Source: Firmicutes bacterium CAG:449 (GTDB taxonomy: Bacteria; Bacillota_I; Bacilli_A; RFN20; CAG-449). Taken from it: a stretch of 64,000 bases of DNA. Below the pieces are notes generated by a model, which ran no database searches, was not told the DNA's origin, and saw only the letters and a list, made by a program, of their open reading frames with translations. The stretch covers positions 20,182 to 84,181 of the forward strand of contig FR889447.1 in the NCBI GenBank assembly GCA_000432895.1, read 5' to 3'. Of this stretch, positions 5,913 through 61,290 are shown piece by piece. Position 1 is the stretch's first letter, and each line of letters begins with the position of its first letter. The translations under genes and the position numbers were made by a program.

Positions 5913-5970
5913 AATTTTTCTCCTTTTATATTTTTATTTTTATATATTTATATTTAATAATAATAAAGAA

Positions 5971-5988
5971 TGTGGATAATGTGGATAA
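5971..5988. promoter_or_regulatory. Two tandem consensus DnaA boxes (TGTGGATAA x2) in the dnaA-dnaN intergenic region
   Basis: The sequence tgtggataatgtggataag contains two perfect 9-mers in head-to-tail arrangement. Confidence 0.8.
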
Positions 5989-6052
5989 GTACTAATTACA
6001 TTCTTTTTTATCAAAAATATTATATCATATATATGCTCATAAAACTATTTAA

Positions 6053-7974: not shown

Positions 7975-8109
7975 ATGAAAAGAACGTATCAACCAAGTAA
8001 AAGAAAACACACATCCGTAAATGGTTTCCGTGCAAGAATGGCAACCCCAAACGGTCGTAAAGTGTTAGCAAGAAGAAGATTAAAAGGAAGAAAAGTCCTT
8101 TCTGCTTAA
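7975..8109 (+). CDS. rpmH: 50S ribosomal protein L34
   Basis: Translates to [44 protein letters not shown], the canonical L34 sequence. Not in the ORF track because it is short. Confidence 0.95.
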
Positions 8110-8126
8110 TTCTTAATTACTTATTA

Positions 8127-8156
8127 AACCACTAGGGGAATCTCTAGTGGTTTTTA
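8127..8156 (+). terminator. Intrinsic terminator / attenuator between rpmH and rnpA
   Basis: Stem AACCACTAG / CTAGTGGTT with an 8-nt loop, followed by TTTTT. Confidence 0.7.
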
Positions 8157-8171
8157 AAAAGTTGGAGAAAT

Positions 8172-8507
8172 ATGCTAAAAAAAGAAGAAAGAGTAAAATC
8201 TAAAGAAGACTTTCAATTAGTTATTTCTAAAAAAAATAAAAAGTTTTCTGATTATTTTATTATATATTCTTTAAAAAGAGAAGAATATAATTATCCTAGG
8301 TTTGGAATTTCTGCATCAAAAAAATTAGGTGATGCAGTTAAAAGAGTAAAGATACGTCGACAAGTTAGAGCGATGATACACCAAATAAAATCTAACTCTT
8401 ATGTAAAACCGAAAGATTATGTGATTATTGTAAGAAATAAATTCTTAAATAATAATTATGAAACTAATTTACAAGCTTTAAAAAAGTTGATTATGGAGGA
8501 CAACTGA
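8172..8507 (+). CDS. rnpA: Ribonuclease P protein component
   Basis: 111 aa basic protein. KLGDAVKRVKIRRQVRA RNR-like motif. Conserved rpmH-rnpA-yidC order. Confidence 0.9.
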   Translation: MLKKEERVKSKEDFQLVISKKNKKFSDYFIIYSLKREEYNYPRFGISASKKLGDAVKRVKIRRQVRAMIHQIKSNSYVKPKDYVIIVRNKFLNNNYETNLQALKKLIMEDN

Positions 8508-9880: not shown

Positions 9881-9891
9881 AGGAGAAGAAT

Positions 9892-10476
9892 ATGCTTTAT
9901 ACAGGAAAAAATTTAGAAGAAGCTATTAAAATAGCAGCTGAAAAAGAATATTGTTCAGAAGAAGAAATAGATTATTTACTTGTTGAACAAAATGAAGAAC
10001 AAACAACAATTGATGTTTATACAATAATGGATGTTATTGAATATGCTAAAAATTATGTTCACGATGGAATTGTTGCTTTAGGTTTTGAAAATAAAGTTAC
10101 TCCTTCTTTAAATGATGGAATTATTAATTTAAAAATTGAATCAGATCGTAATTCAATTTTAATTGGCAAAAATGGTAAATCATTACAAGCTTTAAATGAA
10201 TTAACAAAATTAGCAGTTAATAATAAATTTAAAAAGAGATTTAGAATTTTATTAGATATTAATGGATATAAACTTGAAAAATATTCAAAATTAGTTTCTA
10301 TTGCTAGACATTTAGCTCACGAAGTTCAAAAAACAAAAACAGATGTTGTTCTTGATCCAATGCCAGCTGATGAAAGAAGAGCAATTCATAATGCTCTTGC
10401 AGGTATGCCTCATATTAAGACTGAATCAGAAGGATTTGGTAAAGATAGACAACTTCATATTAAATATGTTGATTAA
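9892..10476 (+). CDS. khpB: Jag/KhpB RNA-binding protein (KH plus R3H domains)
   Basis: 194 aa. KH-like ILIGKNGKSLQALNEL. C-terminal R3H region VLDPMPADERRAIHNAL. Canonical position after yidC. Confidence 0.8.
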   Translation: MLYTGKNLEEAIKIAAEKEYCSEEEIDYLLVEQNEEQTTIDVYTIMDVIEYAKNYVHDGIVALGFENKVTPSLNDGIINLKIESDRNSILIGKNGKSLQALNELTKLAVNNKFKKRFRILLDINGYKLEKYSKLVSIARHLAHEVQKTKTDVVLDPMPADERRAIHNALAGMPHIKTESEGFGKDRQLHIKYVD

Positions 10477-46818: not shown

Positions 46819-47397
46819 TTGTTTTTTATATATCAAAAGAAATTTTTTTTGTTTGAAAATAAAACTAAAACAAATAAATATTTTTATTTTATACCTTTTT
46901 TTATTTGCTGTTTTTCTAATTTGTTGTTGCTTTTTTTTACAAAAGATAGCATTGAAATTAAAAATATAGAATTTTTAATTAATGATGTATTTTTAGATAT
47001 ATTTGTTGCAAGTAGTGAAGAAATATTATTTACATACGCTTTAATTATGTATTTAGAAACTAAAAATTTATCTTTTTTTAAAATAATTATTTTTTCTGCA
47101 TTGATTTTTGCGTTAGCTCATTTGCTAAATATTACTTTAGATAATATTTTTAATACTTTGTTACAGTGCTTATATTGTTTTGGTATAGGATTAATAACTT
47201 CGTTTATGTTTGTTTCTACTAGAAACATTATATTAAGTATTTTATTTCATTTTTTGTTTAATTTTTTTAATCGATCATTATTTGAAAAATTTATAATTCA
47301 TATTCCAATGCCCATATTTATTTTGGTTAATTGTAGTATTGCTTTATTAACTTTTATTTATTGGTTAATAATATATAAAAAAAGAACCATTTTATAA
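46819..47397 (+). CDS. CPBP-family (CAAX protease / Abi-like) intramembrane protein with degenerate motif 1
   Basis: Motif 1 is SEEILFT, i.e. EExxxT rather than EExxxR. Motif 2 FALAHL and motif 3 HFLFNFF are present. About 6 TM. Confidence 0.5.
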   Translation: MFFIYQKKFFLFENKTKTNKYFYFIPFFICCFSNLLLLFFTKDSIEIKNIEFLINDVFLDIFVASSEEILFTYALIMYLETKNLSFFKIIIFSALIFALAHLLNITLDNIFNTLLQCLYCFGIGLITSFMFVSTRNIILSILFHFLFNFFNRSLFEKFIIHIPMPIFILVNCSIALLTFIYWLIIYKKRTIL

Positions 47398-47415
47398 CTA
47401 ATGTGGTTCTTTTAT
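47376..47415. terminator. Bidirectional terminator between the convergent CPBP and hydrogenase genes
   Basis: A-run, AGAACCA, 14-nt loop containing the CPBP stop codon, TGGTTCT, then TTTT. Confidence 0.55.
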
Positions 47416-47418
47416 ATC

Positions 47419-48849
47419 TTATTTTAAATTTAAAATACTAATAGCTTCAGAAATTGTTTTTTCTTTAGCTTCTTTACCATATTTATCAACTTCAGTTTTA
47501 TCTTTAAATTCGTGAGTTAAGCAACATGGTCCTCCAATACAACCATTTACACAACCCATACCTTCAATAAAGTTGAAATCTCTACTAGGTGACATAGCTT
47601 TAATTAAGCCTAACTTACAATTATCAAGTCCATCACAAACTAATGGTTTAACTTCAAATGAACTATTTTGTTCTTTTAAAGCTTGTTTAACTGCATCAGC
47701 AAGGCCACCAGTTCTAGCAAAGATTCTTCCATAATAAGAAGCATTATCTAAAACACTTTCTTCTAAAGTAGAAGCATCAATATCTTGACTATCAATTAAA
47801 GCTTGTAATTCTTCAAAAGTTAAAACATAATCAACATAAGGTTTAACTCTTTCATCTTTAATTTCTTGCTTTTTAGAAATACATGGTCCTACGAAGATAA
47901 TTTTAGCTTCAGGAGTAATTTCTTTAATATGTTTAGCAATGGTTGCCATTGGTGAAAGATTATGAGAAATGTGTTCAGCAAGCTTTGGATAGCATTTTTT
48001 GATATATGAAACGAAAGTTGGACAGCATGAAGAAGTTAAGAATTGTTTCTCTTCTAATTCTTTTGCTTCAGTATAACTGACCATATCTGCACCTAAAGCA
48101 GCTTCGACAACAGAATGGAATCCTAATTTTTTTATAGCGGTAACAATTTGACCTAATGTAGCGTATTTAAATTGAGCAGAAATTGATGGGGCAACAACTG
48201 CATAAATTGGGAATTTTTTAGAGTAATCACTTTCTTTAATTAAGTTAATGACATCAACAATGCTTGATTTATCCATAATAGCACCAAATGGACATTGATA
48301 AACACATGCTCCACATTGTACACATTTGTTATCATCGATTTTTGCTGCATAATCTTCGCCCATAGAAATAGCTTTTACTTTACAAGCTTGTTCACATGGT
48401 CTTTGGAAATTTTGGATAGCATTATATTGACATGCCTTAGCACACATTCCACAATTGACACAAGATGTTTTTTCAATATGTGCCATTCTAGTTTTTGGAT
48501 CAAAAGTAATTGCATTTCTTCTACAAGCTTTTTCACAACGATGAGCAATGCATCCACGGCATCTATTAGTGACTTCATATCCACCTAATGGACATTCATC
48601 ACATGCAATATTAATAACTTCGACAACATTATTGATATCTTTGTTGCCACCAAGAGCAAGTTTAATTCTTTCGTTTACAATAGCTCTTTCTTTATAAATA
48701 CAGCATCTCATTGTTGGTTTTGGGCCTGGAACAACTGTTTTAGGAATATCATTATAATCTTCTAATAATGAACCTTTGAAGGCTGATTTTGCAACTTCTT
48801 TTAAAACCTTATATTTTAATTCTTGTACATTTGTATCAAATTTTAACAT
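47419..48849 (-). CDS. [FeFe]-hydrogenase-like protein with N-terminal 4Fe-4S ferredoxin domains (HfsD-like)
   Basis: CVNCGMCAKAC and CVQCGACVYQCP 4Fe-4S motifs. H-cluster-type motifs P1 TSSCCPTF, P2 GPCISKKQE and P3 EGMGCVNGCIGGPCC. Confidence 0.7.
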   Translation of the reverse strand: MLKFDTNVQELKYKVLKEVAKSAFKGSLLEDYNDIPKTVVPGPKPTMRCCIYKERAIVNERIKLALGGNKDINNVVEVINIACDECPLGGYEVTNRCRGCIAHRCEKACRRNAITFDPKTRMAHIEKTSCVNCGMCAKACQYNAIQNFQRPCEQACKVKAISMGEDYAAKIDDNKCVQCGACVYQCPFGAIMDKSSIVDVINLIKESDYSKKFPIYAVVAPSISAQFKYATLGQIVTAIKKLGFHSVVEAALGADMVSYTEAKELEEKQFLTSSCCPTFVSYIKKCYPKLAEHISHNLSPMATIAKHIKEITPEAKIIFVGPCISKKQEIKDERVKPYVDYVLTFEELQALIDSQDIDASTLEESVLDNASYYGRIFARTGGLADAVKQALKEQNSSFEVKPLVCDGLDNCKLGLIKAMSPSRDFNFIEGMGCVNGCIGGPCCLTHEFKDKTEVDKYGKEAKEKTISEAISILNLK

Positions 48850-48860
48850 CTTTCAAACCT

Positions 48861-50039
48861 CTAAAAATAACTTACTTTAATGTTTTTTCCCATTAGTTTC
48901 AACATTTTTGATAATTCATCAATTAATTGCATTTTTAATGAAAAACTTAGTTGAACATCACTATTTTGATGAGCGTTATTAATTGCACACCCTACAAAGA
49001 AATTAATGTCAGTAGCTTCTTCAAATAACATTTTTGAAATTAAAGAAGCGCCATCTTTTTTGTATTCCCATGTAAAATAATTTGTATTTTTACCATATAA
49101 TAAATTTTTAGCGTTTTCTAAAACTTTATTGATAGTAATAACACCTTCGGTAACTAAATCGACTCCTTCAATTCTAGCAATTGGCGGTATGTTTTTATCT
49201 GTATAATCAAGCGCTAATTCTAAATCTTTATTTAAATAATTAGCAGCAATATGTGAAGTTGTACCTCCACTTACAATATGCTTTCCAGCTTTAGCAAAAA
49301 ATAAAGAAAGCATTTTACTATCATCATCTTTATTAGAAGCTGGTCCAATTAATAGATTCACTTGAGACCTTTTTCTAATTCTAACAATTCCAGCGGTAAC
49401 ATCATCGCCTGGTTTATTATTGTATAATTGATTACAATAGTCAATCAAATTCGTTGCTAATGACATAGAAGATGATTCTTGATTATATATACATTCTAAA
49501 TATTCTTTAATTTGTGGAATATCCCAACCAAAATTTAATGTTTCACCCACGCCAGCATAAATAACTCCATCACTCATGACCACAAATGTATCATAAATGT
49601 CAGCAATCCATTTAGCGTGATAAATTTTTTTATTATCAATAGTGATTAAAGTATAATCTAAATTACATGCTTTTCCATTATGAATAACAAAAGGTGTAGG
49701 GTTATCATAGTTATAGATATCCACATATTTATTGTCTTTGATTTTTATAACAGTAAAAGTTGAATAAGCCAGTTTTCTTACTTTGCATATTGGTAAAGTT
49801 TCTGCAATTGAGTGTACACATTGCTTTAATGAAACGTTTTTGGCCATCATAGTTGAAAGCATTTTAGCGGTTAAAGTTGATAAAATATTAGCTTTAACTC
49901 CACTTCCTAATCCATCGGCAAGGACTAATATAGTGGTGTTTTCGTTTGGATAACAAACTTCAATATGATCACCACATAATTGTTCACCAACATGATTTAA
50001 AGAAAGATAACCAACTTCGGTGACATATCTACTTATCAT
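48861..50039 (-). CDS. PP2C-type (SpoIIE/RsbU family) serine phosphatase with C-terminal extra domain (HfsC-like)
   Basis: CGDHIEV...LADGLGSGVKAN...VMSDGV...DDVT PPM motifs, followed by an uncharacterised domain of about 160 aa. Confidence 0.75.
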   Translation of the reverse strand: MISRYVTEVGYLSLNHVGEQLCGDHIEVCYPNENTTILVLADGLGSGVKANILSTLTAKMLSTMMAKNVSLKQCVHSIAETLPICKVRKLAYSTFTVIKIKDNKYVDIYNYDNPTPFVIHNGKACNLDYTLITIDNKKIYHAKWIADIYDTFVVMSDGVIYAGVGETLNFGWDIPQIKEYLECIYNQESSSMSLATNLIDYCNQLYNNKPGDDVTAGIVRIRKRSQVNLLIGPASNKDDDSKMLSLFFAKAGKHIVSGGTTSHIAANYLNKDLELALDYTDKNIPPIARIEGVDLVTEGVITINKVLENAKNLLYGKNTNYFTWEYKKDGASLISKMLFEEATDINFFVGCAINNAHQNSDVQLSFSLKMQLIDELSKMLKLMGKNIKVSYF

Positions 50040-51708
50040 TTTCTAAAGTGTCCTTTAATGAAAGAAGAGCAACTTTTGTTTCAGCAGCTGATTCACCTAA
50101 AAGCGAAGCAATTTCTTGAACTGCTCGCATGTTTTTTTCAATAACTTCGTTTGTAATCTCAACAGATTTACGAAGTGTTTCTTCTCTTTTTTGATAAGAT
50201 AATTCTGATTCAGTAATATCTTTCATGATGCAAATTAAAATATGAAATTTTTTATCATGAATAATAGTGTTATCAACATATTTATCATATTCGGAAAGAT
50301 ATTCTTTTTTTTCTAAAATTCCATTTTCTTCATCAAGAGCTTTTAAATAAGTACTTGGATCTAAAATGGTAGTAATGTTTTGTTTTAAAACAGTAGAAGG
50401 AGATTGAGCCTTTACTATTTTACACATTGATTCATTTATTAATTGTATATCTAAATTCTCATCTAAAACCATTAAACCATTTGGAGTATTATAAACAATT
50501 TTATCAGAGAATGATTGTGCTTTTTCCATTAAATATGGCAAACACATTTCTGGTATTGCTTTACCTTGAATTATTGCAATTGCTTTTTCGCGACATGAAT
50601 TATATCCACATGATCCACAATTAAGTTGAGCTTCTTTTTCATGTTTTCCCATTAAAAGCAAAGTTTTTTCAATTTCTGCTTCTGAAGGTGTTGCATGAGA
50701 AAGACTATATGGAGCGTGTTGAGAAAAAATATCTTGGCTACTAATTTTCATTAAGTCAAAATCTTTTGCTCCTGTTGTGTTTTCAATTGCTAAATAACTA
50801 GTAACAATACTTCTTGCTTTGTCTTTGATCATTGGTCCATTTACACAACTACCATGACAACTTGACATTTCAATAAAACATTTATGAATTTTTCCATGGA
50901 TAATATCTTCTAAAGCGTATCTAGCAGATTCGATTCCATCAATAGAAATGAATTTAAAATCTTGATTAGAGGTATCCATTGTTTTTAGGATACCTCCACA
51001 AGTAGGGAAGAATCGTGCTTTAGATTTATCAATAAGAATATTATCATCAGTTTCAATTATAATATTTTGTTGATCTAAAAATTCGTCTAATTCGGTAAAT
51101 GTTAAACATGCATCAATATAATTTTTATTTTTATCCGCTTCATCTTTTTTAGCTATGCATGGGCCAATAAAGACAACTTTTGCATCATCATATCTTGCTT
51201 TGATATCTTTACCATGAGCAAGCATTGGAGAAAGTACATTAGCTAAATAAGGTAAGGCTTCAGGGTAATATTTTTCAATTAAAAGATTTATTGAATGACA
51301 GCAGGAAGAAATAATTACATCATGTTGATCATTTAACATATTGTTATATGCATTTTTAACGATTGTTGCGCCAACAGCAGTTTCTTCTACATCATAAAAT
51401 CCTAATTGTAATAAAGCCTTTTTGATAGAATTTAAACTTACATTAGCGTAGTTAGAAATAAAACTTGGTGCTAATGAAACAATAACTTTTTTATTATTTG
51501 CAATTAAGTTTTTAACTTTATCGATATCATTTCTAACAATTTTTACTTTTTGTGGACACGCTAAATAGCATTTACCACATAAAATACAATCATCATGGAT
51601 AATTATTGCTTTATTATTGGTAAAAGAAATTGATTTAACAGGGCAATTACGTATACATTTATAACAATTTTTACAATTATTAGTTTTGCTTTCTAAACAA
51701 TAATCCAT
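50029..51708 (-). CDS. Putative sensory [FeFe]-hydrogenase (HydS/HfsB-like) with C-terminal PAS domain
   Basis: Two N-terminal CxxCxxCxxxCP motifs. H-domain motifs P1 ISSCCHS, P2 GPCIAKKDE and P3 EMSSCHGSCVNGP. Extra Cys cluster NCGSCGYNSC. Then a PAS-like fold of about 110 aa and a helical tail. Confidence 0.75.
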   Translation of the reverse strand: MDYCLESKTNNCKNCYKCIRNCPVKSISFTNNKAIIIHDDCILCGKCYLACPQKVKIVRNDIDKVKNLIANNKKVIVSLAPSFISNYANVSLNSIKKALLQLGFYDVEETAVGATIVKNAYNNMLNDQHDVIISSCCHSINLLIEKYYPEALPYLANVLSPMLAHGKDIKARYDDAKVVFIGPCIAKKDEADKNKNYIDACLTFTELDEFLDQQNIIIETDDNILIDKSKARFFPTCGGILKTMDTSNQDFKFISIDGIESARYALEDIIHGKIHKCFIEMSSCHGSCVNGPMIKDKARSIVTSYLAIENTTGAKDFDLMKISSQDIFSQHAPYSLSHATPSEAEIEKTLLLMGKHEKEAQLNCGSCGYNSCREKAIAIIQGKAIPEMCLPYLMEKAQSFSDKIVYNTPNGLMVLDENLDIQLINESMCKIVKAQSPSTVLKQNITTILDPSTYLKALDEENGILEKKEYLSEYDKYVDNTIIHDKKFHILICIMKDITESELSYQKREETLRKSVEITNEVIEKNMRAVQEIASLLGESAAETKVALLSLKDTLENDK

Positions 51709-51725
51709 TTAATTTCCCCTTAAAA

Positions 51726-51971
51726 TTAAATTTTACTTAATATATGGTTGTTGAAGAAATCGTTAAAGTTATCTAATGTAACTCCTGTAACAATTTCATC
51801 ATCAACTTTTATTGAAACACCAGAGATGCCACATTTGCCGAGGCAAAATGTGGCTTTAAGTGTAACTTTATCTTCTAAAGAATGTTCTTTGATAGCATTT
51901 TTTAATGCTTCAACAATATCATAACTTCCTTTTAAGTGGCATGAAGAACCAACGCAAACTAAGACTGTCAT
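51726..51971 (-). CDS. Thioredoxin-like [2Fe-2S] ferredoxin (NuoE/HndA-like; HfsA-like)
   Basis: 81 aa. CVGSSC (Cx4C) and CLGKC (Cx3C) ligand motifs. Confidence 0.65.
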   Translation of the reverse strand: MTVLVCVGSSCHLKGSYDIVEALKNAIKEHSLEDKVTLKATFCLGKCGISGVSIKVDDEIVTGVTLDNFNDFFNNHILSKI

Positions 51972-51972
51972 A

Positions 51973-54588
51973 TTAATTTCCTTTATAAGCTTTTCTTAAA
52001 ATTTCTTTCATGTCTTCAACAAGAGGAACACGTGGGTTAGCTGGTGAACATTGATCTTCATAAGCAAGAACAGCGATTTCATCAATCTTACTATTCCAAT
52101 CTTCTTCAGAAATACCCATTGCTTGGAAGTTAGGATCAAGATTAATTTCTTTCATTAAATCGTAAATTGCTTTGACTAATGAATTAACACCTTCTTCAGG
52201 AGTTGAAGCTTTTAATCCTAATAATTTAGAGATGTCTTGATATTTTTTATCTGCACAATAATGGTTGTATTTTGGCCATACAGATAATTTTGTTGGGACT
52301 TGACCATTATATTTAATAACGTGTGGTAATAAAACAGCACATGCATATCCGTGAACAGCATGGAATTCTGCGCCAACTTTATGAGCGAGTGAGTGAGTCA
52401 TACCAAGGAATGCATTAGCAAATGCCATACCTGCGATTGTTGCAGCATTATGCATTTTTTCACGAGCTTCTAAATCATCTTTACCATATTTAACTGCACG
52501 AGGTAAATATTCAAAGACCATCTTAATTGCTTGTAAAGCAAGACCATCTGTATAATCACTTGCTAAAACTGAAACATAAGCTTCAATAGCGTGAGTTAAA
52601 ACATCCATACCAGTCATTGCTGTTGATCTTGCTGGTAAGTTTGTTGTAAATTCAGCATCGACAATAGCAATTGTTGGAGTTAATGAGTAGTCTGTTAAAG
52701 GATATTTTTTGTTATTTGCTTTGTCTGAAATAACAGCGAATGGAGTTACTTCACTACCTGTACCAGAAGTTGTAGGAATACAAATGAGTTTTGATTTCTT
52801 TCCTAATTCAGGATATTTAAATGCTCTTTTACGAATATCCATGAATTTTTGTTTTAAGTCATCAAAGTTAACTTCTGGATGTTCATAGAATAACCACATA
52901 CCTTTAGCAGCATCCATTGGTGAACCACCACCAAGAGCAATAATTGTATCAGGTTTAAATGCGTTCATTAAACGAACACCACGTTTTACTGTTTCAATAT
53001 CTGGATCTGGTTCTACATCACAGAATAATTGAACTTGAACAGGATTTCTTCTTAAATTTAATTGTTCAGTAATTTTGTTAACAAAGCCAAAATCAACCAT
53101 TGATCTATCTGTAACAATAAAGACTTTATTTACATCTCTACATGCTTGTAAATATTGAATTGAATTTCTTTCGAAATAAATTTTTCTTGGTACTTTGAAC
53201 CATTGCATAGTATTTCTTCTTTTACCTACTTTCTTGACATTTAATAAGTTAACTGCACTGACGTTTCCACCAATAGAGTTACGTCCATAGCTACCACAAC
53301 CTAAAGTTAATGATGGTAAGAATGAGTTGTAAACATTACCGATTCCACCGAATGTTGAAGGTGAATTCCAAATAATACGCATAGCTTTAACTCTTTCGCC
53401 AAAGTCATCAGCCATTTTTTGTTCTTTACAATGAATTGCAGCACTATGACCTAAACCATTAAAGCAAACCATTTCTTCAGCAAATTTGAAACCTTCTTCT
53501 TCGTTCTTTGATTTTAATATAGCAAGTACTGGTGAAAGTTTTTCTCTTGTTAATGGTTCTTTTGGTCCAACAAAACTACATTCTGCAGCAAGAATAGCAG
53601 TATCTTCAGGTACTTCGAAACCAGCTTGTTCGGCAATCCAGTGTGCTGATTTACCAACAACATTTGGATTTAATTTAGCTTGTTCAACACCTTCTTCGTT
53701 TGTTGCATAACCAAACATAAATTTAGATAATTTAATTTTTTCTTCTTTATTAACAAAGTATGTTTTGAATCTAACAAATAATTTTTTAGCTTCTTGATAA
53801 ATTTCTTGATCGATAATTGCTGCTTGTTCACTAGCACAAATCATACCATTATCAAATGATTTTGATAAGACGATATCATTGACTGCTTGTTCAACATCAG
53901 CAGATTTATTAATATATGAAGGAACATTACCTGCACCAACACCCATAGCTGGTTTTCCACAACTATAAGCTGCTTTAACCATTGCGTTACCACCAGTAGC
54001 TAAAATTGTAGCGACACCTGTGTGATTCATTAAAGCGGTTGTAGCATCCATTGATGGATGTTCGATCCATTGAATACAATTCTTTGGAGCACCTGCTTTA
54101 ACTGCAGCTTCATACATTACTTGAGCAGCTGCTTTAGATGATTGTTGAGCATTTGGATGGAATGCAAAGATAATTGGATTTCTTGTTTTTAAACAAATTA
54201 AAGATTTAAAGATAACTGTAGAAGTTGGGTTAGTAACTGGAGTAATACCAGCAACAACACCAATTGGATCAGCAATTTCAGTAATTCCTGTAACAGGATC
54301 ACTAGAAATAACACCAACAGTTTTTAAATGTCTCATGTTATTTACAACGTATTCACATGCAAATAAGTTTTTAGTTGCTTTATCTTCAAAGACACCTCTT
54401 TTAGTTTCATCTATAGCAATTTTTGCTAATGAACCATGGTGATCAAGTCCAGCAACAGAACATTTTGCAACGATGTAGTCAACTTGTTCTTGATCAAGCT
54501 TTAAAAATTCGTCTAAAGCTTTTTGAGCATTTTTTACAAGTCCATCGACTTCTTCGAATGCGTTAATGTTTACGATTTTTTCACTCAT
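51973..54588 (-). CDS. adhE: Bifunctional acetaldehyde-CoA / alcohol dehydrogenase
   Basis: 871 aa. N-terminal ALDH domain and C-terminal iron-ADH domain (GGGSPMDAAK). 4-nt overlap with rex. Confidence 0.95.
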   Translation of the reverse strand: MSEKIVNINAFEEVDGLVKNAQKALDEFLKLDQEQVDYIVAKCSVAGLDHHGSLAKIAIDETKRGVFEDKATKNLFACEYVVNNMRHLKTVGVISSDPVTGITEIADPIGVVAGITPVTNPTSTVIFKSLICLKTRNPIIFAFHPNAQQSSKAAAQVMYEAAVKAGAPKNCIQWIEHPSMDATTALMNHTGVATILATGGNAMVKAAYSCGKPAMGVGAGNVPSYINKSADVEQAVNDIVLSKSFDNGMICASEQAAIIDQEIYQEAKKLFVRFKTYFVNKEEKIKLSKFMFGYATNEEGVEQAKLNPNVVGKSAHWIAEQAGFEVPEDTAILAAECSFVGPKEPLTREKLSPVLAILKSKNEEEGFKFAEEMVCFNGLGHSAAIHCKEQKMADDFGERVKAMRIIWNSPSTFGGIGNVYNSFLPSLTLGCGSYGRNSIGGNVSAVNLLNVKKVGKRRNTMQWFKVPRKIYFERNSIQYLQACRDVNKVFIVTDRSMVDFGFVNKITEQLNLRRNPVQVQLFCDVEPDPDIETVKRGVRLMNAFKPDTIIALGGGSPMDAAKGMWLFYEHPEVNFDDLKQKFMDIRKRAFKYPELGKKSKLICIPTTSGTGSEVTPFAVISDKANNKKYPLTDYSLTPTIAIVDAEFTTNLPARSTAMTGMDVLTHAIEAYVSVLASDYTDGLALQAIKMVFEYLPRAVKYGKDDLEAREKMHNAATIAGMAFANAFLGMTHSLAHKVGAEFHAVHGYACAVLLPHVIKYNGQVPTKLSVWPKYNHYCADKKYQDISKLLGLKASTPEEGVNSLVKAIYDLMKEINLDPNFQAMGISEEDWNSKIDEIAVLAYEDQCSPANPRVPLVEDMKEILRKAYKGN

Positions 54589-55235
54589 ATTTTTTCCTCC
54601 TGAAGTTTATTTTTTAGTTTATGAGAGATTACAGCAAGGGATGATGCTAAGTTTACATTTTCAATAACAATATCTTCATTAACATTTAAGTTAATTGGCG
54701 CAAAATTCCAAATTGCTTGAATTCCCGCATCAACAAGAAGATCTGCTACATATTGAGCTGCGCTTGATGGGGTGGTGATGATAGCAATTTTAACATTTAA
54801 TCTACCAACTAAATTTTTAAGTTTAGACATTGCAAAGATTGGCTTACCATTAATTTTTGTATCAATCTTTTGCGGATTAATATCAAATCCTGCAAGAATA
54901 TTTAAACCAAATTCTTTAAATCCTTCATATTTCATGAAAGCTTCACCAATACTTCCAACACCAACAATAATGGCATCATCAGTATTTTTATATCCTAAGA
55001 ATTGCTCAATATCATCAATTAGAACATTTATATCCCTTCCAAGATTTGGTTTTCCTTTCGTGGAAGTGATAGCTTGTAAATCTTTTTTTACTTGTTCTTC
55101 TGAAAATTTTAATGCTCTTGCAATTAATGGAGATGTGATATTAACTACTCCTGCATTTCGCATTGAAATTAAATATTTCAAGTAAATTGGATAACGTTGA
55201 ATTTGCTTGATTGAATAGTTTGGTACTTTATCCAC
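54585..55235 (-). CDS. rex: Redox-sensing transcriptional repressor Rex
   Basis: Collinear with B. subtilis Rex. Winged helix plus Rossmann GVGSIG. Classic rex-adhE pairing. Confidence 0.9.
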   Translation of the reverse strand: MDKVPNYSIKQIQRYPIYLKYLISMRNAGVVNITSPLIARALKFSEEQVKKDLQAITSTKGKPNLGRDINVLIDDIEQFLGYKNTDDAIIVGVGSIGEAFMKYEGFKEFGLNILAGFDINPQKIDTKINGKPIFAMSKLKNLVGRLNVKIAIITTPSSAAQYVADLLVDAGIQAIWNFAPINLNVNEDIVIENVNLASSLAVISHKLKNKLQEEKI

Positions 55236-55380
55236 TTAGCTCTCCTTTCGGTATTTTTTTACCGAGTACATTTTATCTTTAAATGTAATTTATTGTCAAT
55301 AAAAGTATAACAAATTTTATATGTTGTAGGCAATATATAAAATGTAAGCGATTTCATTAGACGTTAGTATTTTTTTATAA

Positions 55381-55423
55381 ACAAAAAAGACTATGAATTT
55401 CTAAATATCATAGTCTATTTTTG
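55381..55423. terminator. Bidirectional intrinsic terminator downstream of the feo operon
   Basis: A7 run, AGACTATGA, 11-nt loop, TCATAGTCT, then ATTTTT. Confidence 0.75.
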
Positions 55424-55427
55424 TCTT

Positions 55428-55604
55428 TTACTTATTGTATTTTTTGTGGTATGCTCTTACTAAATTGTTACCTTTTTTAGTATGACTACAGCAAGCACAA
55501 TCGCCAGTTGGTAAATGTTTCACTTTTCTATAAATATAACGACCAATAATAAATGCTAGAAATAGGAGGGTTAAAATAATAACAATTATTTCTATTGGTT
55601 GCAT
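55428..55604 (-). CDS. FeoB-associated Cys-rich small membrane protein (58 aa, 1 TM plus CxCC motif)
   Basis: Not in the ORF track. Translates to MQPIEIIVIILTLLFLAFIIGRYIYRKVKHLPTGDCACCSHTKKGNNLVRAYHKKYNK. Located 4 nt downstream of the feoB stop. Confidence 0.55.
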   Translation of the reverse strand: MQPIEIIVIILTLLFLAFIIGRYIYRKVKHLPTGDCACCSHTKKGNNLVRAYHKKYNK

Positions 55605-55608
55605 ATAT

Positions 55609-57861
55609 TTATTCTACAACTAATGGATGTTTTTTATTGTAAAAGTGAATACCAACGATAACTAATGCGATAACTGCAGCAAAGATAAATACTGTCCACC
55701 ACCATGAACCGATTACATAAATCATGCTAGAAACAATATATGATGTTCCAAGCCAAAATAAGATTGTTGTTAAGAATTTCTTTTTAGGTAATTCAGCTTT
55801 TGCTGTTGCACACGCTGCAAAGCAAGGAATAGTGGTCATATTGAATGCAATGAAAGAAATTAAAGCTGGAATTGTAATGCCAGTTCCTTGAATCATTGCA
55901 ACTGCTGCTGCAACATCTCCACCATCGACTTCAACATCAATAGAAGCACCGATAATACAAGCTGCAAGAGCACCGAATGTAGCAATAACATTTTCTTTGG
56001 CAATAAGACCTGTTAATGCTGCAACAACGAATACCCAACCAAATGTTTTTAATTGTGAACCAAAGCCAAGTGGTGTGAATAATGGTTGCAAGAATTTTCC
56101 TATACCGGCAAGTATAGATTGATCTATTTGTTCATCTTCAAGGAAATTAAATGTCCATGTGAAGTGAGATAGAACCCAAATTAAGATTGTGGAAGCAAGA
56201 ATAATTGTAAATGCTTTCTTAATAAAGTGTTTTGTTTTGTCCCATAGGTGAATCATTAATGATTTAAATTGAGGTGCATGGTAACTTGGAAGTTCCATAA
56301 TAAATGGTGGGACATCTCCACGCATTGTTGTATTTCTCATTAAGATAATAGTAACAATTGCTGTTACCATACCAAGTAAGTACATTGAATATGTAATTAA
56401 GTCAGCATTTCCTACATTGAAGAATTCAACAATACCACCAGCAATAGCGGTTAATATTGGTAATTTTGCTCCACATGAGAAGAAAGGAATAACTCTAATA
56501 GTAGCTGTTCTTTCATTATCATCAGCAAGAGTTCGAGTATTAATCATAGCAGGGACTGAACATCCAAAGCCCATAATCATTGGCATAAATGCTCGACCTG
56601 ATAAACCAAATTTTCTAAAGATACGATCAAGAATAAAAGCAACACGAGCCATATATCCAGAATCTTCAAGAATTGAGAAGAATAAGAATAAAACTAATAT
56701 TTGAGGTAAGAATCCTAAGACAGCAAATAATCCACCTAAAACACCATCACAAATAAAACCAGTGACCCAAACAGCGTTACCTTCACTAGGTAACCAACCT
56801 CTTACTACATCAGTAAACCATCCTGTAATAGAATTTAAAAGGTTAGCTAAGATTACTCCAGGTGAATTGATTCCAGCATCAGTGTAAAATAATCCTTCGA
56901 ATACTGTGCCACTAAAGCATGGCTCAACATCTGAGAAAAGTCCACCTAAGAAGAATAAATTTTCTGAGAATGTTAAATGGAATATAATAAATAAGATTAA
57001 TAAGAAGATAGGAATACCAGCCCATTTATTAGTTAATACTTTATCAATTTTGTCTGATTTAGTTAAAACTTCTTTTTCTTTTGTTTTAGTTAAAACTGAT
57101 GAGAAATTTTTTGAAATATATTTATATCTTTCATCAGCAACAATTGCTTCAAAATCTTTTCCAAAAGTATCATCAGAGAATGTATTTTTAAATTCTTCAA
57201 CCATTGGTAATAAATCTTGGTGTGCTTTTGTTTCTAATTCATCGAGTTCTACAAGTTTTACTGCATGAAAAAGTGAATTTTCGATATGTTGTCCTTTAAA
57301 AGCAATTTTAACATCGTTGATTAAATGAGCTAATTTGCTATCTTTTAAGACAGTTGTACCTTCTCTATAACCATGCTTAGAAGCAAGATAAGCAACTTCC
57401 ATTAATTTATTAATACCTTCTTCTTTTAAAGCGGATATTTCTACAACTGGAAGGCCAATTCTTTTTTCTAATTCTTTAGCGTTAATTGCTTCGCCTCTAT
57501 TTTTTACTTCATCCATCATGTTTAATGCGATAACCATAGGGACATCAATTTCCATTAATTGAGTAGTTAAATAAAGATTTCTTTCAAGGTTAGTTGCATC
57601 AACGATATTGATAATACAATTTGGTTTTTCATCAAGAATAAAGTTTCTTGAAATTACTTCTTCAGGAGTATATGGTGATAAAGAATAAATACCAGGTAAA
57701 TCAACAATGCTAATATGTTCTTCTAATTTTTTGTATGTACCTTCTCTTTTATCAACTGTAACTCCAGGCCAGTTACCAACATGAGCTGTTGAACCTGTTA
57801 AAGCGTTAAATAATGTGGTTTTACCACAGTTAGGATTACCTGCAAGTGCAAACTTTTTCAT
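55609..57861 (-). CDS. feoB: Ferrous iron transporter FeoB
   Basis: G-domain ALAGNPNCGKTTLFNALTG plus polytopic permease domain. Start set at MKKF, which has an AGGAGG RBS, rather than the upstream in-frame ATG. Confidence 0.9.
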   Translation of the reverse strand: MKKFALAGNPNCGKTTLFNALTGSTAHVGNWPGVTVDKREGTYKKLEEHISIVDLPGIYSLSPYTPEEVISRNFILDEKPNCIINIVDATNLERNLYLTTQLMEIDVPMVIALNMMDEVKNRGEAINAKELEKRIGLPVVEISALKEEGINKLMEVAYLASKHGYREGTTVLKDSKLAHLINDVKIAFKGQHIENSLFHAVKLVELDELETKAHQDLLPMVEEFKNTFSDDTFGKDFEAIVADERYKYISKNFSSVLTKTKEKEVLTKSDKIDKVLTNKWAGIPIFLLILFIIFHLTFSENLFFLGGLFSDVEPCFSGTVFEGLFYTDAGINSPGVILANLLNSITGWFTDVVRGWLPSEGNAVWVTGFICDGVLGGLFAVLGFLPQILVLFLFFSILEDSGYMARVAFILDRIFRKFGLSGRAFMPMIMGFGCSVPAMINTRTLADDNERTATIRVIPFFSCGAKLPILTAIAGGIVEFFNVGNADLITYSMYLLGMVTAIVTIILMRNTTMRGDVPPFIMELPSYHAPQFKSLMIHLWDKTKHFIKKAFTIILASTILIWVLSHFTWTFNFLEDEQIDQSILAGIGKFLQPLFTPLGFGSQLKTFGWVFVVAALTGLIAKENVIATFGALAACIIGASIDVEVDGGDVAAAVAMIQGTGITIPALISFIAFNMTTIPCFAACATAKAELPKKKFLTTILFWLGTSYIVSSMIYVIGSWWWTVFIFAAVIALVIVGIHFYNKKHPLVVE

Positions 57862-57862
57862 C

Positions 57863-58099
57863 TTAATCCTCCTTAACAAGCATTGTAACTAACTCTGCTT
57901 CTGTCTTTCTAAGTGTTAATTCGTATCCACGAATAGTAACTTCAATTGGATCACCTAGAGGAGCTTTTTTTCTTAAAATAACATCAGCGCCAGGAGTGAC
58001 ACCCATATCGAATAATCTTCTACGGACTCTTCCTTCCCCAATAACACTTTTAATTGTTCCTTTTTCTCCAACTAGAAATTCATTTAGTTTTTTCTCCAT
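57863..58099 (-). CDS. feoA: FeoA domain protein (copy 2)
   Basis: 78 aa from MEKKLNEFLVGEKGTIKSV...RRRLFDMGVTPGADV... SH3-like FeoA fold. Confidence 0.75.
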   Translation of the reverse strand: MEKKLNEFLVGEKGTIKSVIGEGRVRRRLFDMGVTPGADVILRKKAPLGDPIEVTIRGYELTLRKTEAELVTMLVKED

Positions 58100-58115
58100 A
58101 AAATTCCTTCTTTCT

Positions 58116-58328
58116 TTATGCAACAAGTATTTTTGTTGACAAATTACTATCAAGAGCTAAACGTCCATCTTTAACAATGCAAATGACATTTCCTCCTGAT
58201 TTGGATAAGACTTTAATTGTGGAATTAATAGTAATTCCTAAACTTTCAAGATGCTTTTTAGTTTTTTCATCTGCAAGAATTTTAACAACTTTTAAGTCTT
58301 GATCTAATGGTGCTAAAACGATTGGCAT
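58116..58328 (-). CDS. feoA: FeoA domain protein (copy 1)
   Basis: 70 aa. LKVVKILADEKTKKHLESLGITINSTIKVL...GNVICIVKDGRLAL. Confidence 0.7.
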   Translation of the reverse strand: MPIVLAPLDQDLKVVKILADEKTKKHLESLGITINSTIKVLSKSGGNVICIVKDGRLALDSNLSTKILVA

Positions 58329-58626: not shown

Positions 58627-61290
58627 ATGAAAAGAAATTTAATTTATATTACATCATGCTTAATTCTTTTTAATTTATTTGCTTGCTCATCTAATAATTC
58701 TTCTATAGATGATACAAGTAATACTAGTCAAACTAGTGAAACTTCTTTTCTAGAAGCAGTCAATGCGACAAAAGATAACTTCCAATTAGATACTTATTAT
58801 TATGAAGTAGATAATTTAAAATCTTATCTAAATCATTATCAACATAGTAATATTCGATACGATGGAAGTAAATCAATTTATTGGAAAAAATATGTAACTG
58901 CATATACTGAAGATAAAAATGAATTTGAAAAATTGTTAAATATTGATGATAATTATCAACAAATGGTTTTTTATCTTGAAGATGGAGTTCTTCAAGAAAG
59001 GTTAAAAAATGAAGAAGATGTTTGGAAACAATTTAATTATAAACCAACATTTAGTTTCGATGAAAAGATTACTGATTATATAATTGCTGATCATTACCAT
59101 GAACAAGATGGATTTTATTATTTAAATGATGAATATTTAGGAACTGAAGAATGTTCTAGATTAACTGGATATTATGGATCCTATTCTTATTTAAATCAAA
59201 TTTTTGATTATGTTTGTTTTTCTATCAAAGATGGAAAACTTGATGAATATAAGTTTAAAGTAAAGTTTACTAGTATGAAAACAACTACTTTTGATTATGA
59301 TGCGAATGTTGAATTAACAGGAAAATTTTCTAATATAGGAACAATTGATTTAAAAGTTCCAGCTTTACCTGTTTATCCAGAAGATTTACTTCCTGAACAA
59401 AAAGAATTAGAAGAAGCTAAAATAAAGACTGAAAAAAATTATACTTATAATGAAAAATATAGTATTACTGATGAAAATGGTGAAACAAAAACTTATGATT
59501 TTATTGAACAAGTCAATAATCGTTCATTTAGAAATTATATGTATTCAGAATTTGCAGGATGTTATGTGGATTCTTATACTTATGATGTAGTAAGTATTAG
59601 TTTCTCTGGTGGTGTCCACACCACGACATATGATACATCTTTATATTATTATGATGATCATACTGAATATTATTCTAATGATATGGATATTGAAGATGAT
59701 TCTGTTTCAAGTGTGGAAAGAATTGGAAGTAGCTTTGGTACAAAAATTTATACTTATAATGAAGAAGAAAAATATTATACTCCTAGATTAGAAAAACCAG
59801 AAAGATATAATCCTCGTAATGAAACATATCTAGATTATGCTTCTAAATCATTTATTCATGGTATTTATGGTGAATATACGACAAATGAAGGAGTTTCATA
59901 TCATTATGATTTTATTGATTTAAAGTTCTATTTAAATGATGAAGGAGTTTTTTCTAAAGCAAGTTATGAATATGATTTAACAATCACTGAAAAAGGTATT
60001 TCTAAAGTTTATAAATGCTCTGGAACTGGCTTGTTCTCTAATGTTGGTACAACTTCATTTGATATTCCAACTGATCCAAATAATGATATAGAACTAGATG
60101 AAAGACTACAAGGGTTATATGATTCAATGAATTTAACTAATTATTCATATGAGGAAACTTATTCTATTTATGATGATAGTGACAATAAATTAGAATTATA
60201 TGGAGTTGAAGGACAACCTGTTTATGATAATGTTTTAAAAGAAAAAGTAAATGGTAGAGATGTTTGTTTATCGCATTATGGATATGTTCCAAGAGTGGAT
60301 AATCAAGAAGAATATGATGTTGAGTTTGTTGATGAATATTATCATTATGGTGATTATAACTTAGTTAGATCATATAAATTACAAAATTATGAACAATTAT
60401 TCTTCAATTATGCAGGAACTTATAAATTTACTCCTTGCATTGAAGCATTAAAGAATTACTTAAAATATTTTAAATTTGTAAGAACAAGAACTATTAATAA
60501 TCAAGAAGCATATGTTTTCTCTTTACCAGAAGTGTATGCTAAAATGTATGGATCAAGTATTGTTAGTAGTGTTGATGAAAATTCTTATACAAAATTCAAT
60601 AGTTTAAATTTAACTATTATTGGTAATGAAATATATCAAATTTCTTATGATTATGATTATTATAATAAAACAGATTATATTGGTGTTTGTTCAGGCAAAA
60701 TTAAAATAAATGGTTTCGGTACTACAGAAGTCAATATTCCTAATTTTAATGAAAGCGATTATGAAGTAACTACTCTACAAGATTCAGTTAATTTATTAAA
60801 AGATTCTTCTTATAACTACAAAGATTCAGCAAAAATTTCTTATTTTTCTAATAGAACTATTGGAAATTATATAAATATTAATAATTCATTTAATGTTACT
60901 AGTGAGCAAGAAAATGAATATTATTTAAATGATAATAAGCAATTATGTTTAGATATGAATCTTAAAGATAAAGATTATACGTTTGCAGTTTTATCAAAAT
61001 TAGATATAGATATTTCCAAAATAGATCAAAGAAAATTTTATTGTGATAGTAATGGAACATTTGTTTTAAAAAGTGAATATAAAAATGAATTTTTTAAAGA
61101 GGTATTACCAATAGAAGAACAATTTGGTGAAGGTAATGTTCAACCTCAAAATATTTCTATTGATGCAAATGGAGCTATTTTACAAATTAATTTATCATAC
61201 ATTGTAAGATTTAAATTAGATGATGGAAGTTATGTAGTATTTTATATTACTCGTTCAATTTTAATTTCAAATTCACCAATTATTATGTAA
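58627..61290 (+). CDS. Large Tyr/Asp/Asn-rich surface lipoprotein (887 aa) with three tandem modules of about 230 aa each
   Basis: Lipobox LFAC-SS. Modules end in TGKFSNIGTIDLKVP (about 59.3 kb), GTGLFSNVGTTSFDIP (about 60.0 kb) and GKIKINGFGTTEVNIP (about 60.7 kb). Each is followed by NYTYNEKYSI-like segments. Confidence 0.6.
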   Translation: MKRNLIYITSCLILFNLFACSSNNSSIDDTSNTSQTSETSFLEAVNATKDNFQLDTYYYEVDNLKSYLNHYQHSNIRYDGSKSIYWKKYVTAYTEDKNEFEKLLNIDDNYQQMVFYLEDGVLQERLKNEEDVWKQFNYKPTFSFDEKITDYIIADHYHEQDGFYYLNDEYLGTEECSRLTGYYGSYSYLNQIFDYVCFSIKDGKLDEYKFKVKFTSMKTTTFDYDANVELTGKFSNIGTIDLKVPALPVYPEDLLPEQKELEEAKIKTEKNYTYNEKYSITDENGETKTYDFIEQVNNRSFRNYMYSEFAGCYVDSYTYDVVSISFSGGVHTTTYDTSLYYYDDHTEYYSNDMDIEDDSVSSVERIGSSFGTKIYTYNEEEKYYTPRLEKPERYNPRNETYLDYASKSFIHGIYGEYTTNEGVSYHYDFIDLKFYLNDEGVFSKASYEYDLTITEKGISKVYKCSGTGLFSNVGTTSFDIPTDPNNDIELDERLQGLYDSMNLTNYSYEETYSIYDDSDNKLELYGVEGQPVYDNVLKEKVNGRDVCLSHYGYVPRVDNQEEYDVEFVDEYYHYGDYNLVRSYKLQNYEQLFFNYAGTYKFTPCIEALKNYLKYFKFVRTRTINNQEAYVFSLPEVYAKMYGSSIVSSVDENSYTKFNSLNLTIIGNEIYQISYDYDYYNKTDYIGVCSGKIKINGFGTTEVNIPNFNESDYEVTTLQDSVNLLKDSSYNYKDSAKISYFSNRTIGNYININNSFNVTSEQENEYYLNDNKQLCLDMNLKDKDYTFAVLSKLDIDISKIDQRKFYCDSNGTFVLKSEYKNEFFKEVLPIEEQFGEGNVQPQNISIDANGAILQINLSYIVRFKLDDGSYVVFYITRSILISNSPIIM

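Follow-up and report, generated by a model that had tools for sequence, protein, structure and literature searches.

Six minus-strand genes of Firmicutes bacterium CAG:449, in the order rex-adhE-fdx-hydS-pp2c-hydA2, constitute a real operon with one predicted promoter and one terminator. They lie in the window, the stretch of 64,000 nucleotides analysed here, and amount to a pared-down version of an operon that earlier work had described in Ruminococcus albus and Clostridium thermocellum, with no new principle. Judged by its likeness to the R. albus 7 system, the operon is probably the CAG:449 version of a high-H2/high-NADH switch that would make AdhE together with a ferredoxin-dependent hydrogenase. 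Gene content, order and spacing, the integrity of domains and motifs, orthology to the R. albus genes, synteny with their cluster and the wide conservation of the linkage all come from the present analysis.

Anatomy of the six-gene operon

The six ORFs lie exactly where the initial annotation had placed them, and Pfam and NCBIfam profile searches bear out the domains that it had named. Packing is tight, with successive intergenic distances from rex to hydA2 of -4, +1, +17, -11 and +11 nt, the negative values being overlaps of adhE with rex and of pp2c with hydS, and a Shine-Dalgarno-like sequence precedes each gene. Because fdx starts 1 nt past the end of adhE, there is no room for a terminator at this junction, and no minus-strand terminator-like site was found within the six-gene cluster. 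A predicted sigma-70-type operon promoter (55270..55299, minus strand; consensus match only) combines a -35 element, TTGACA (55299-55294), an 18-nt spacer and a -10 element, TAAAAT (55275-55270); with 11 of 12 matches, it is the top-scoring promoter-like site between 45 and 58 kb. An intrinsic terminator hairpin with a U-run (47377..47412, minus strand; -11.4 kcal/mol, z -3.57) is common to the operon and a convergent Rce1-like gene (46819-47397), and a hairpin upstream of the operon (55379-55426; -17.7 kcal/mol, z -6.5) ends the upstream feoAAB/small-ORF unit. The earlier proposal of one transcript bracketed by terminators therefore holds as far as anatomy goes, and co-transcription in CAG:449 would match that reported for R. 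albus. A scan of the entire window at Rfam gathering scores returned no RNA family. The cluster sits on the chromosome some 40 kb away from dnaA, in a genome of 26% G+C, and numerous independent contigs of human-gut metagenomes repeat the identical six-gene arrangement with 99.5-99.7% identity.

The first gene, rex (54585..55235, minus strand), encodes from a GTG start a 216-aa NADH/NAD+-sensing repressor (NF003994, 247.6 bits, cut-off 130). Both the winged-helix N-domain and the Rossmann NAD(H) domain are present, and the match to the PDB Rex 3wg9 (E 1e-35) covers residues 7-209, GVGSIG included. Alignment of the DNA-binding wing assigns the protein to a subfamily in which this wing has diverged and ITSTKGKPNLGR stands instead of FGxFGxxGYGY. 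The adjoining adhE (51973..54588, minus strand) specifies a bifunctional acetaldehyde-CoA/alcohol dehydrogenase of 871 aa (NF010378, 1408.7 bits, cut-off 951) with the Pfam domains Aldedh, Fe-ADH and ADH_Fe_C. It is followed by fdx (51726..51971, minus strand), the gene of an hfsA-like, thioredoxin-like [2Fe-2S] ferredoxin of 81 aa (PF01257, 37.4 bits, cut-off 24.8) with cysteines at Cys6, Cys11, Cys43 and Cys47 and weak C-terminal NuoE/HoxE matches in NCBIfam; this single gene is the counterpart of two (2Fe-2S) ferredoxin genes in R. albus.

The penultimate gene, pp2c (48861..50039, minus strand), codes for an hfsC-like SpoIIE/PP2C Ser/Thr phosphatase of 392 aa (PF07228). The PP2C fold is present, and its metal-binding aspartates are all kept (D24, D42, D157 and D212/D213) and are invariant in 75 orthologues. 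Its C-terminal domain, approximately residues 226-392, is Rossmann-like and uncharacterised. Neither a kinase nor an anti-sigma partner gene for the phosphatase was found in the window, in agreement with the earlier reading.

The two hydrogenases

The larger of the two hydrogenases, HydS (50029..51708, minus strand), is an hfsB-like putative H2-sensing enzyme of the [FeFe] type, 559 aa in length, with matches to Fer4, Fe_hyd_lg_C, PF04060 and, weakly, PAS. Two N-terminal [4Fe-4S] sites are followed by the H-domain, a C-terminal Cx2Cx4Cx16C cluster, a putative PAS region and a helix conserved at the C-terminus. The N-terminal sites, the H-domain and a C-terminal [4Fe-4S] cluster recur in the biochemically characterised sensory enzymes TmHydS (group C, M2f) and TamHydS (group D, M2e), of which TmHydS contains a PAS domain. 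The CAG:449 protein is 49.5% identical to R. albus HydS over 99% of its length. Its H-domain motifs are SSCCH, GPCIAKKDE and EMSSCHGSC, and C137, C184, C284 and C288 align with C300, C355, C499 and C503 of CpI, so that all four H-cluster cysteine ligands are kept; none of these ligands varies among 83 orthologues, nor do K187 and E190. The C-terminal cluster cysteines, C364, C367, C372 and C389 (PF04060, 38.9 bits, cut-off 23), are likewise invariant in the 83 orthologues. The PAS signal of the protein itself is weak (PF00989, 18.6-21.5 bits, below the gathering score of 22.6; fragment E 2.5e-4), and PF00989 is matched by 11 of 13 HydS homologues at E<=1e-3.

Two substitutions relative to CpI, M353G (G182) and M497S (S282), are of the sensory type and place small residues where TmHydS has G177 and S267. 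Of the two hydrogenases, only HydS carries this pair. Its features suggest a sensor of H2, a role still called putative for any HydS (PMC8924675); in TamHydS, the C-terminal cluster gave no response to H2 (PMC13104023). In contrast to TmHydS and TamHydS, which have A131 and A137 at the position of the CpI proton-relay cysteine C299, the CAG:449 protein retains a cysteine there (C136, within SSCCH; conserved in 82 of the 83 orthologues), and, again unlike them, it shows His at the Pro position of TSCCP. Since 17% of group C sequences have Cys at the C299 position according to the literature, C136 does not exclude HydS from group C. With this cysteine kept, H2 turnover by HydS may exceed that of the sensors characterised so far.

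The last gene, hydA2 (47419..48849, minus strand), encodes an hfsD-like monomeric group B [FeFe]-hydrogenase of 476 aa with Fer4 and Fe_hyd_lg_C domains. It matches TIGR04105, 'monomeric [FeFe] hydrogenase', at full length over residues 4-446 (560.8 bits, cut-off 450). Compared with CpI, it keeps C299, C300, C355, K358, E361, M497, C499 and C503 and has Gly in place of M353. The motifs TSSCCPTF, GPCISKKQE and EGMGCVNGCIGGP (patterns TSSCCP, GPCxxKKxE and EGMxCxxGC) are invariant in 61 orthologues. From its sequence, HydA2 is the predicted catalytic, ferredoxin-dependent counterpart of HydA2/HfsD and not a sensory protein. The initial annotation had regarded both hydrogenases as sensory, with atypical motifs in each; this description fits the 559-aa protein, with its SCCH and MSSCHGSC, and fails for the 476-aa protein. 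Group labels for such enzymes differ in the literature, R. albus HydA2 being assigned to group A1 (PMC6776011) and TsHfsD to group B (PMC8924675).

Known relatives and competing readings

Plasmid pRUMAL01 of R. albus 7 carries rex-aad(adhE)-Ser/Thr kinase-fdx-fdx-hydS-PP2C-hydA2, with the order and strand seen in the window. Its Rex belongs to the same divergent-wing subfamily, the layout of H-cluster, Cx2Cx4Cx16C motif and putative PAS region in its HydS is identical, and in both genomes PP2C overlaps hydS and a group B HydA2 comes last. The window differs in having no 250-aa APH-like kinase, one ferredoxin gene rather than two, no upstream LysR gene, no canonical Rex box and no extended -10, and in its chromosomal location, the R. 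albus cluster residing on a 420-kb plasmid. The latter is a co-transcribed, eight-gene, H2-repressible unit whose transcripts fell 111-fold when H2 was removed by co-culture with an H2 consumer (Greening et al. 2019, PMC6776011); it was also studied by Zheng et al. 2014 (J Bacteriol 196:3840), as summarised in PMC10838669 and PMC5707799.

In C. thermocellum (Cthe_0422-0431 / Clo1313_1799-1791), the order is rex, adhE, 'aminoglycoside phosphotransferase', hfsA, hfsB, hfsC, hydABC, and the block is co-regulated (PMC3848806). As in the window, rex-adhE adjoins a sensory hydrogenase and a SpoIIE phosphatase; the differences are the kinase-like gene and, going by description, a trimeric bifurcating HydABC after the sensor instead of a monomeric group B enzyme. 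Deletion of hfsB increased ethanol in five species, C. thermocellum included (PMC5707799). The hfsABCD operon of Thermoanaerobacterium saccharolyticum (Shaw 2009 and Eminoglu 2017; PMC5707799) consists of four genes, for a small protein, a PAS-[FeFe]-hydrogenase, a PP2C-like protein and a ferredoxin-linked hydrogenase, with no kinase; there, unlike in the window, adhE (Tsac_0416) lies at a separate locus (PMC5707799). HfsB has been equated with HydS and HfsD with HydA2 (PMC8924675). Domain order and R. albus synteny uphold the initial assignment of the last four genes to an hfsABCD/HydS-type module, and these comparisons, together with the literature statements, suggest that the module is orthologous to Tsac_1550-1553.

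The initial annotation had further held that linkage of rex-adhE to the sensor was special, the loci being separate elsewhere. Among the matches listed, which did not include the window's own species, it is the majority arrangement: adhE lies directly upstream of the sensor module in 35 of the 46 species-level loci whose flanks are complete, so the fusion that was to be sought in relatives is widespread. By tblastn, rex, adhE, ferredoxin, hydS, PP2C and hydA2 share one strand and one order in the window and locus L085, and from Oscillospiraceae through to Bacilli-type genomes the genes keep their order. Given this majority linkage, co-transcription in R. albus and co-regulation in C. thermocellum, dual NADH/H2 control of ethanol formation, offered earlier as a new inference, is a model already published. 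Sensor-less rex-adhE-hydA2 clusters also occur (L132, L134 and L158; L159 is cut inside adhE), and they show adhE and hydA2 to be the functional core; conversely, two loci (L009, L086) have hfs modules without adhE. An APH/Bud32-like kinase, searched with the R. albus query (tblastn, E<=10), is present in 58 other loci and was found neither in the window nor in any Bacilli-type locus. Because kinase, second ferredoxin and LysR gene are all absent from the window and from the 10 kb on either side of all Bacilli-type clusters, the phosphorylation circuit is incomplete as encoded here.

In the favoured reading, the single promoter would drive all six genes, with Rex repressing at low NADH/NAD+. 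HydS would bind H2 at an H-cluster tuned for sensing by M353G and M497S and presumably signal, via the [4Fe-4S]/PAS region at its C-terminus, to the PP2C with which it is translationally coupled; the phosphatase may then alter the phosphorylation state of a presumed target and so raise operon output. AdhE and HydA2 would cooperate when H2 accumulates and the electron-bifurcating hydrogenase can no longer reoxidise NADH: AdhE would reoxidise NADH via ethanol formation, and the group B HydA2 would discharge reduced ferredoxin as H2.

The main competitor keeps the H2 signal and moves its point of action from transcription to protein activity, with HydS-PP2C dephosphorylating AdhE, HydA2 or Rex that a housekeeping kinase had phosphorylated, so that the lack of a dedicated kinase would be of no consequence in this lineage. 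The PP2C catalytic residues are indeed invariant with no kinase in the window or near the Bacilli-type clusters, T. saccharolyticum hfsABCD is likewise described as four genes only, and in hfs mutants NADH-ADH activity changed without a matching change in ALDH (PMC5707799). Yet the main effect in R. albus is the large transcript change (PMC6776011), no phosphosite or substrate is known, and a kinase may be encoded elsewhere in the genome, beyond the regions searched. We regard this reading as possible, though on balance unlikely. Less likely still is a multi-subunit metabolic Hfs hydrogenase, in which HydS, the 2Fe-2S protein and HydA2 would form the main ferredoxin-linked hydrogenase, Rex would govern two electron sinks, and PP2C would tune enzyme activity post-translationally rather than pass an H2 signal to transcription. 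Such a complex would account for the proton-relay cysteine C136, lost in TmHydS and TamHydS, and for the invariant H-cluster ligands, K187 and E190; moreover, T. saccharolyticum shows less hydrogenase activity once the whole hfsABCD operon is deleted, and ADH activity was reported to be affected post-transcriptionally (PMC5707799). On the other hand, the M353G and M497S pair is the signature of low-activity sensory enzymes, a PAS domain and an extra C-terminal cluster are unnecessary for catalysis, deletion of hfsB only raised hydrogenase activity and altered adhE expression (PMC5707799), and rex-adhE-hydA2 clusters exist without hydS or pp2c.

It is also conceivable that internal promoters express fdx-hydS-pp2c-hydA2 apart from rex-adhE, the packing being mere compaction in a 26% G+C genome. 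Promoter-like hexamers do occur inside pp2c (49444-49416) and hydA2 (48780-48751), and the hfs modules lacking adhE point the same way. However, promoter-like sites are rarer than chance (61 found against 78 expected), the junctions consist of 1-nt and 17-nt gaps and 4-nt and 11-nt overlaps, the gene order persists across genomes from Oscillospiraceae to the Bacilli type, and the R. albus orthologue is reported as co-transcribed (PMC6776011), which makes this reading very improbable.

The rex-promoter palindrome and wider meaning

Within 350 nt upstream of rex, the best match to the canonical Rex box TTGTKAAnnnnTTMACAA scores 11/14, which equals background, and falls inside the upstream ORF; matches to this box in 26% G+C DNA are at chance level. 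Clostridia-type relatives, on the other hand, have near-perfect Rex boxes 50-70 nt upstream of rex. As a new side observation, an operator-like palindrome, TCGGTAAAAAAATACCGA, with arms TCGGTA/TACCGA, lies downstream of the -10 element and ahead of the ribosome-binding site (55248..55265, minus strand; about +1 to +16) and overlaps the predicted transcription start. It also occurs upstream of rex in Bacilli-type relatives (L012, L056, L080, with two copies, and L006-8). The strict family TC[GA][GA]TA-N6/7-TA[CT][CT]GA tracks rex, 30 of its 37 sites in 1.39 Mb lying within 220 nt upstream of that gene, and relatives of TCGGTAAAAAAATACCGA mark rex promoters in 30 loci. In Clostridia the palindrome sits some 100-130 nt before rex and close to promoter position -60, as in R. 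albus. The exact 18-mer is found in metagenome contigs at no fewer than 120 loci, and 96 of those listed lie inside ORFs as chance matches; no wider regulon is visible among the metagenome-contig matches listed. The site was also scored as a plus-strand 'terminator-like' match in the terminator scan.

A 5'-UTR RNA hairpin (folding at -7 kcal/mol) was considered and rejected, because the position of the palindrome relative to the promoter varies among loci (covering the -35, within the spacer or at +1), the mismatches between its arms in 31 loci are not strand-consistent, with A.C as frequent as G.U, and in Clostridia the element lies far upstream. Another candidate owner is the adjacent LysR regulator. 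The palindrome is present without a nearby LysR gene in the window, L132, L134 and L157, and lysR-adhE loci without rex have only a related TATCA-N5-TGATA element. Rex may autoregulate through the palindrome at the transcription start. A bolder proposal, which we hold tentatively and judge rather doubtful, is that TCGRTA-N6/7-TAYCGA is the operator of a dedicated Rex subfamily that has a remodelled wing, travels with adhE/hydA2 and has abandoned the canonical box, and that HydS-PP2C in Bacilli gives a kinase-independent H2 signal, possibly acting directly on Rex or AdhE. If true, the result would be a minimal four-component H2/NADH integrator.

Operons of this type are the leading candidate for H2 sensing and for the switch between acetate/H2 and ethanol in fermenting Firmicutes, a switch that underlies interspecies hydrogen transfer in rumen and gut and has been exploited in biofuel strains to increase their ethanol yield. 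Testable handles on the output side of this pathway are offered by the palindrome of the rex promoter and by the LysR gene conserved in Clostridia. The present locus shows the module reaching uncultured, very AT-rich Bacilli of the human gut, reduced to a minimum of six genes that include no kinase, second ferredoxin or LysR, and it narrows the choice of indispensable parts.

Gene order and predicted transcription unit

The six-gene feature is real and was correctly described by the initial annotation. On the minus strand, rex (54585-55235), adhE (51973-54588), an 81-aa ferredoxin gene (51726-51971), hydS (50029-51708), the gene for the 392-aa PP2C phosphatase (48861-50039) and hydA2 (47419-48849) occupy exactly the positions it gave. 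Pfam and NCBIfam agree with its domain content, the PAS domain of HydS being sub-threshold in the window's own sequence. Junctions from rex to hydA2 measure -4, +1, +17, -11 and +11 nt, and each of the six genes has a ribosome-binding site. A strong promoter-like site matching the consensus (TTGACA-18-TAAAAT, 55299-55270, minus strand) precedes rex, promoter-like hexamers inside the cluster are rarer than chance expectation, and no terminator-like site was found on its minus strand. The flanking terminators previously claimed correspond to hairpins at 55379-55426 (-17.7 kcal/mol), the predicted end of an upstream unit, and at 47377-47412 (-11.4 kcal/mol), after hydA2 and common to a convergent Rce1-like gene.

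The cluster recurs on many independent human-gut contigs at 99.5-99.7% identity. A 137-bp deletion splits hydA2 in L003 (near 13413; window equivalent ~48160-48296), a conspecific gut metagenome contig; the deletion is a naturally occurring loss-of-function allele or else an artefact of assembly.

Upstream of the operon lies a feoA-feoA-feoB iron-uptake unit (55428-58328) with its own strong terminator, whose last ORF encodes a Cys-rich membrane protein of 58 aa (MQPIEIIV...GDCACCSH...). The chromosomal origin region, with minus-strand dnaN and dnaA and plus-strand yidC and jag, spans 4791-10476, about 40 kb from the minus-strand operon; should the replication start lie between 7432 and 8507, operon transcription would run head-on to replication. 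No Pfam match at E<=1e-3 was obtained for three sizeable ORFs elsewhere in the window (12493-14256, 587 aa; 11843-12541, 232 aa; 58627-61290, 887 aa).

Two dissimilar hydrogenases

Both hydrogenases had been proposed to be sensory, a reading that remains likely for HydS and falls for HydA2. The 559-aa HydS has two N-terminal [4Fe-4S] motifs, the H-domain motifs SSCCH, GPCIAKKDE and EMSSCHGSC, a C-terminal cluster motif Cx2Cx4Cx16C (PF04060) and a PAS-like region that 11 of 13 homologues match. In CpI numbering it carries M353G and M497S, substitutions found likewise in the sensory group C enzyme TmHydS (G177, S267). Its C299 cysteine is kept, whereas TmHydS (A131) and the group D sensor TamHydS (A137) have alanine there; cysteine at this position is reported for 17% of group C sequences. 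All three positions are conserved across 83 orthologues (C299-equivalent cysteine in 82). Following the PAS region, a very conserved predicted helix (residues ~505-559, window 50029-50190) contains NMRAVQEIASLLGESAAETK, nearly invariant among 13 homologues compared, and may be a phosphatase-contact surface.

Against TIGR04105 ('monomeric [FeFe] hydrogenase', cut-off 450), HydA2 (476 aa) scores 560.8 bits. Residues C299, C300, K358, E361 and M497 are retained, and only M353 is replaced, by the glycine that the active group B enzyme CpIII also has there. Judged by this score and these residues, HydA2 is not a sensory hydrogenase.

A compact member of a known operon type

This locus adds a new, compact member to an operon type described before. 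A tblastn search of plasmids found the Ruminococcus albus 7 pRUMAL01 cluster, annotated as rex, adhE, a phosphotransferase, two (2Fe-2S) ferredoxins, a PAS-hydrogenase, a SpoIIE phosphatase and a 478-aa hydrogenase; the phosphotransferase (250 aa, APH/Bud32-like) is without counterpart in the window. Zheng et al. reportedly described this unit in 2014 as one transcript. In C. thermocellum, Cthe_0422 (rex), 0423 (adhE) and 0424 (phosphotransferase) belong to a co-regulated block, Cthe_0422-0430, that continues with 0425-0427 (hfsA, hfsB, SpoIIE) and 0428-0430 (hydABC) (PMC3848806). Because both species link rex-adhE to the sensor module, the earlier statement that the hfs and adhE loci are separate holds only for T. 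saccharolyticum. Deletion of hfsB increased ethanol in five species (PMC5707799).

Scanning one genome for each species gave at least 80 loci, to which cluster genes were mapped by tblastn. Among the matches listed, 46 loci had enough flanking sequence for gene order to be counted, and in 35 of these adhE sits immediately ahead of the sensor module, which makes the linkage the majority arrangement among them. The order rex-adhE-kinase-fdx-fdx-hydS-pp2c-hydA2 accounts for 16 of the 46, the R. albus-type order without detectable rex for seven, and the window's six-gene order for five (L006, L007, L008, L056, L080). L012, with incomplete flanks, also has the six-gene order, and L005 reads adhE-fdx-hydS-pp2c-hydA2 with rex undetected. 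The six-gene form appears, among the matches listed, only in Erysipelotrichaceae-, Bacilli- or Anaeroplasmatales-like records and a few mis-binned-looking contigs. Near-identical Bacilli-type clusters (L007, L008; also L006, L011, L015, L048) are filed as 'Gemmiger formicilis' and 'Slackia isoflavoniconvertens' within one MAG set, which suggests binning errors in those assemblies.

The kinase, present in 58 other loci, gave no tblastn match in the window or any Bacilli-type locus with the threshold relaxed to E<=10. Nor did Pfam detect a kinase, STAS/anti-sigma protein or LysR in any of the remaining window ORFs of 120 aa or longer, in line with the claim that the window holds no kinase or anti-sigma partner. 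Sensor-free rex-adhE-hydA2 clusters, devoid of hydS, pp2c and ferredoxin, exist at L132 (5154-9830), L134 (250-5016) and L158 (7005-11757), and therefore mark AdhE and HydA2 as the functional core. L159 (9113-10706), where the contig ends inside adhE after rex, is probably of this type. All four are preceded by an 18-mer palindrome identical to the window's.

Promoter palindrome and proposed regulation

No canonical Rex box was found upstream of rex in the window or its Bacilli-type relatives. The operator-like palindrome TCGGTAAAAAAATACCGA (55248-55265) sits instead downstream of the -10 element and ahead of the ribosome-binding site of rex. Its family, TCGRTA-N6/7-TAYCGA, marks cluster-linked rex promoters and occurs also at L012, L056, L080, L006-L008, L132, L134, L157-L159 and L167, in varying positions: over the -35 element (L006, L007), at about +5 (L056), or within the spacer of the promoter and once more ahead of the ribosome-binding site (L080). 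In Clostridia-type loci, TCGATA-N7-TATCGA is located ~100-130 nt ahead of rex, and next comes a canonical Rex box containing an extended -10 element. In 1.39 Mb of loci together with the window, TC[GA][GA]TA-N6/7-TA[CT][CT]GA has 37 sites, and for 30 a rex gene follows no more than 220 nt downstream. An RNA hairpin was rejected because arm mismatches are not strand-consistent, leaving the palindrome as a candidate DNA operator.

Candidate binders are, as alternatives, the cluster-linked Rex and a LysR-type protein. All cluster-linked Rex proteins have a divergent wing, VS-GxGKPKxG[Y/R], versus the usual FGxFGxxGYGY. In 35 Clostridia-type loci the cluster is immediately preceded by a LysR-family gene of the same orientation (39-66% identity), whichever of rex, adhE or the kinase gene comes first in it. 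The R. albus member (WP_013483405, L085 2273-3205) was left out of the published 'eight-gene cluster', and LysR is absent from the window.

For CAG:449, the best-supported account is the published R. albus model (Greening et al. 2019, PMC6776011) carried over by analogy; anatomy and orthology are observed here and expression behaviour is borrowed. At high H2, AdhE would reoxidise NADH and HydA2 reduced ferredoxin, with Rex reporting NADH/NAD+. HydS would sense H2 and, via its PAS region, signal to the PP2C translationally coupled to it, which would act on a substrate, and Rex may autoregulate through the palindrome. Caution is due mainly because HydS keeps its C299 cysteine and the kinase is missing, and the same two features motivate both rival explanations. 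That HydS is a working hydrogenase subunit is improbable, given the M353G and M497S changes shared with TmHydS. A post-translational rather than transcriptional output of the H2 signal is a less remote prospect, though still a doubtful one; the R. albus unit falls 111-fold when H2 is removed. The value of the find lies mainly in the minimal gene set and in the promoter palindrome and the LysR gene, both conserved, as handles for testing the output side of the pathway.
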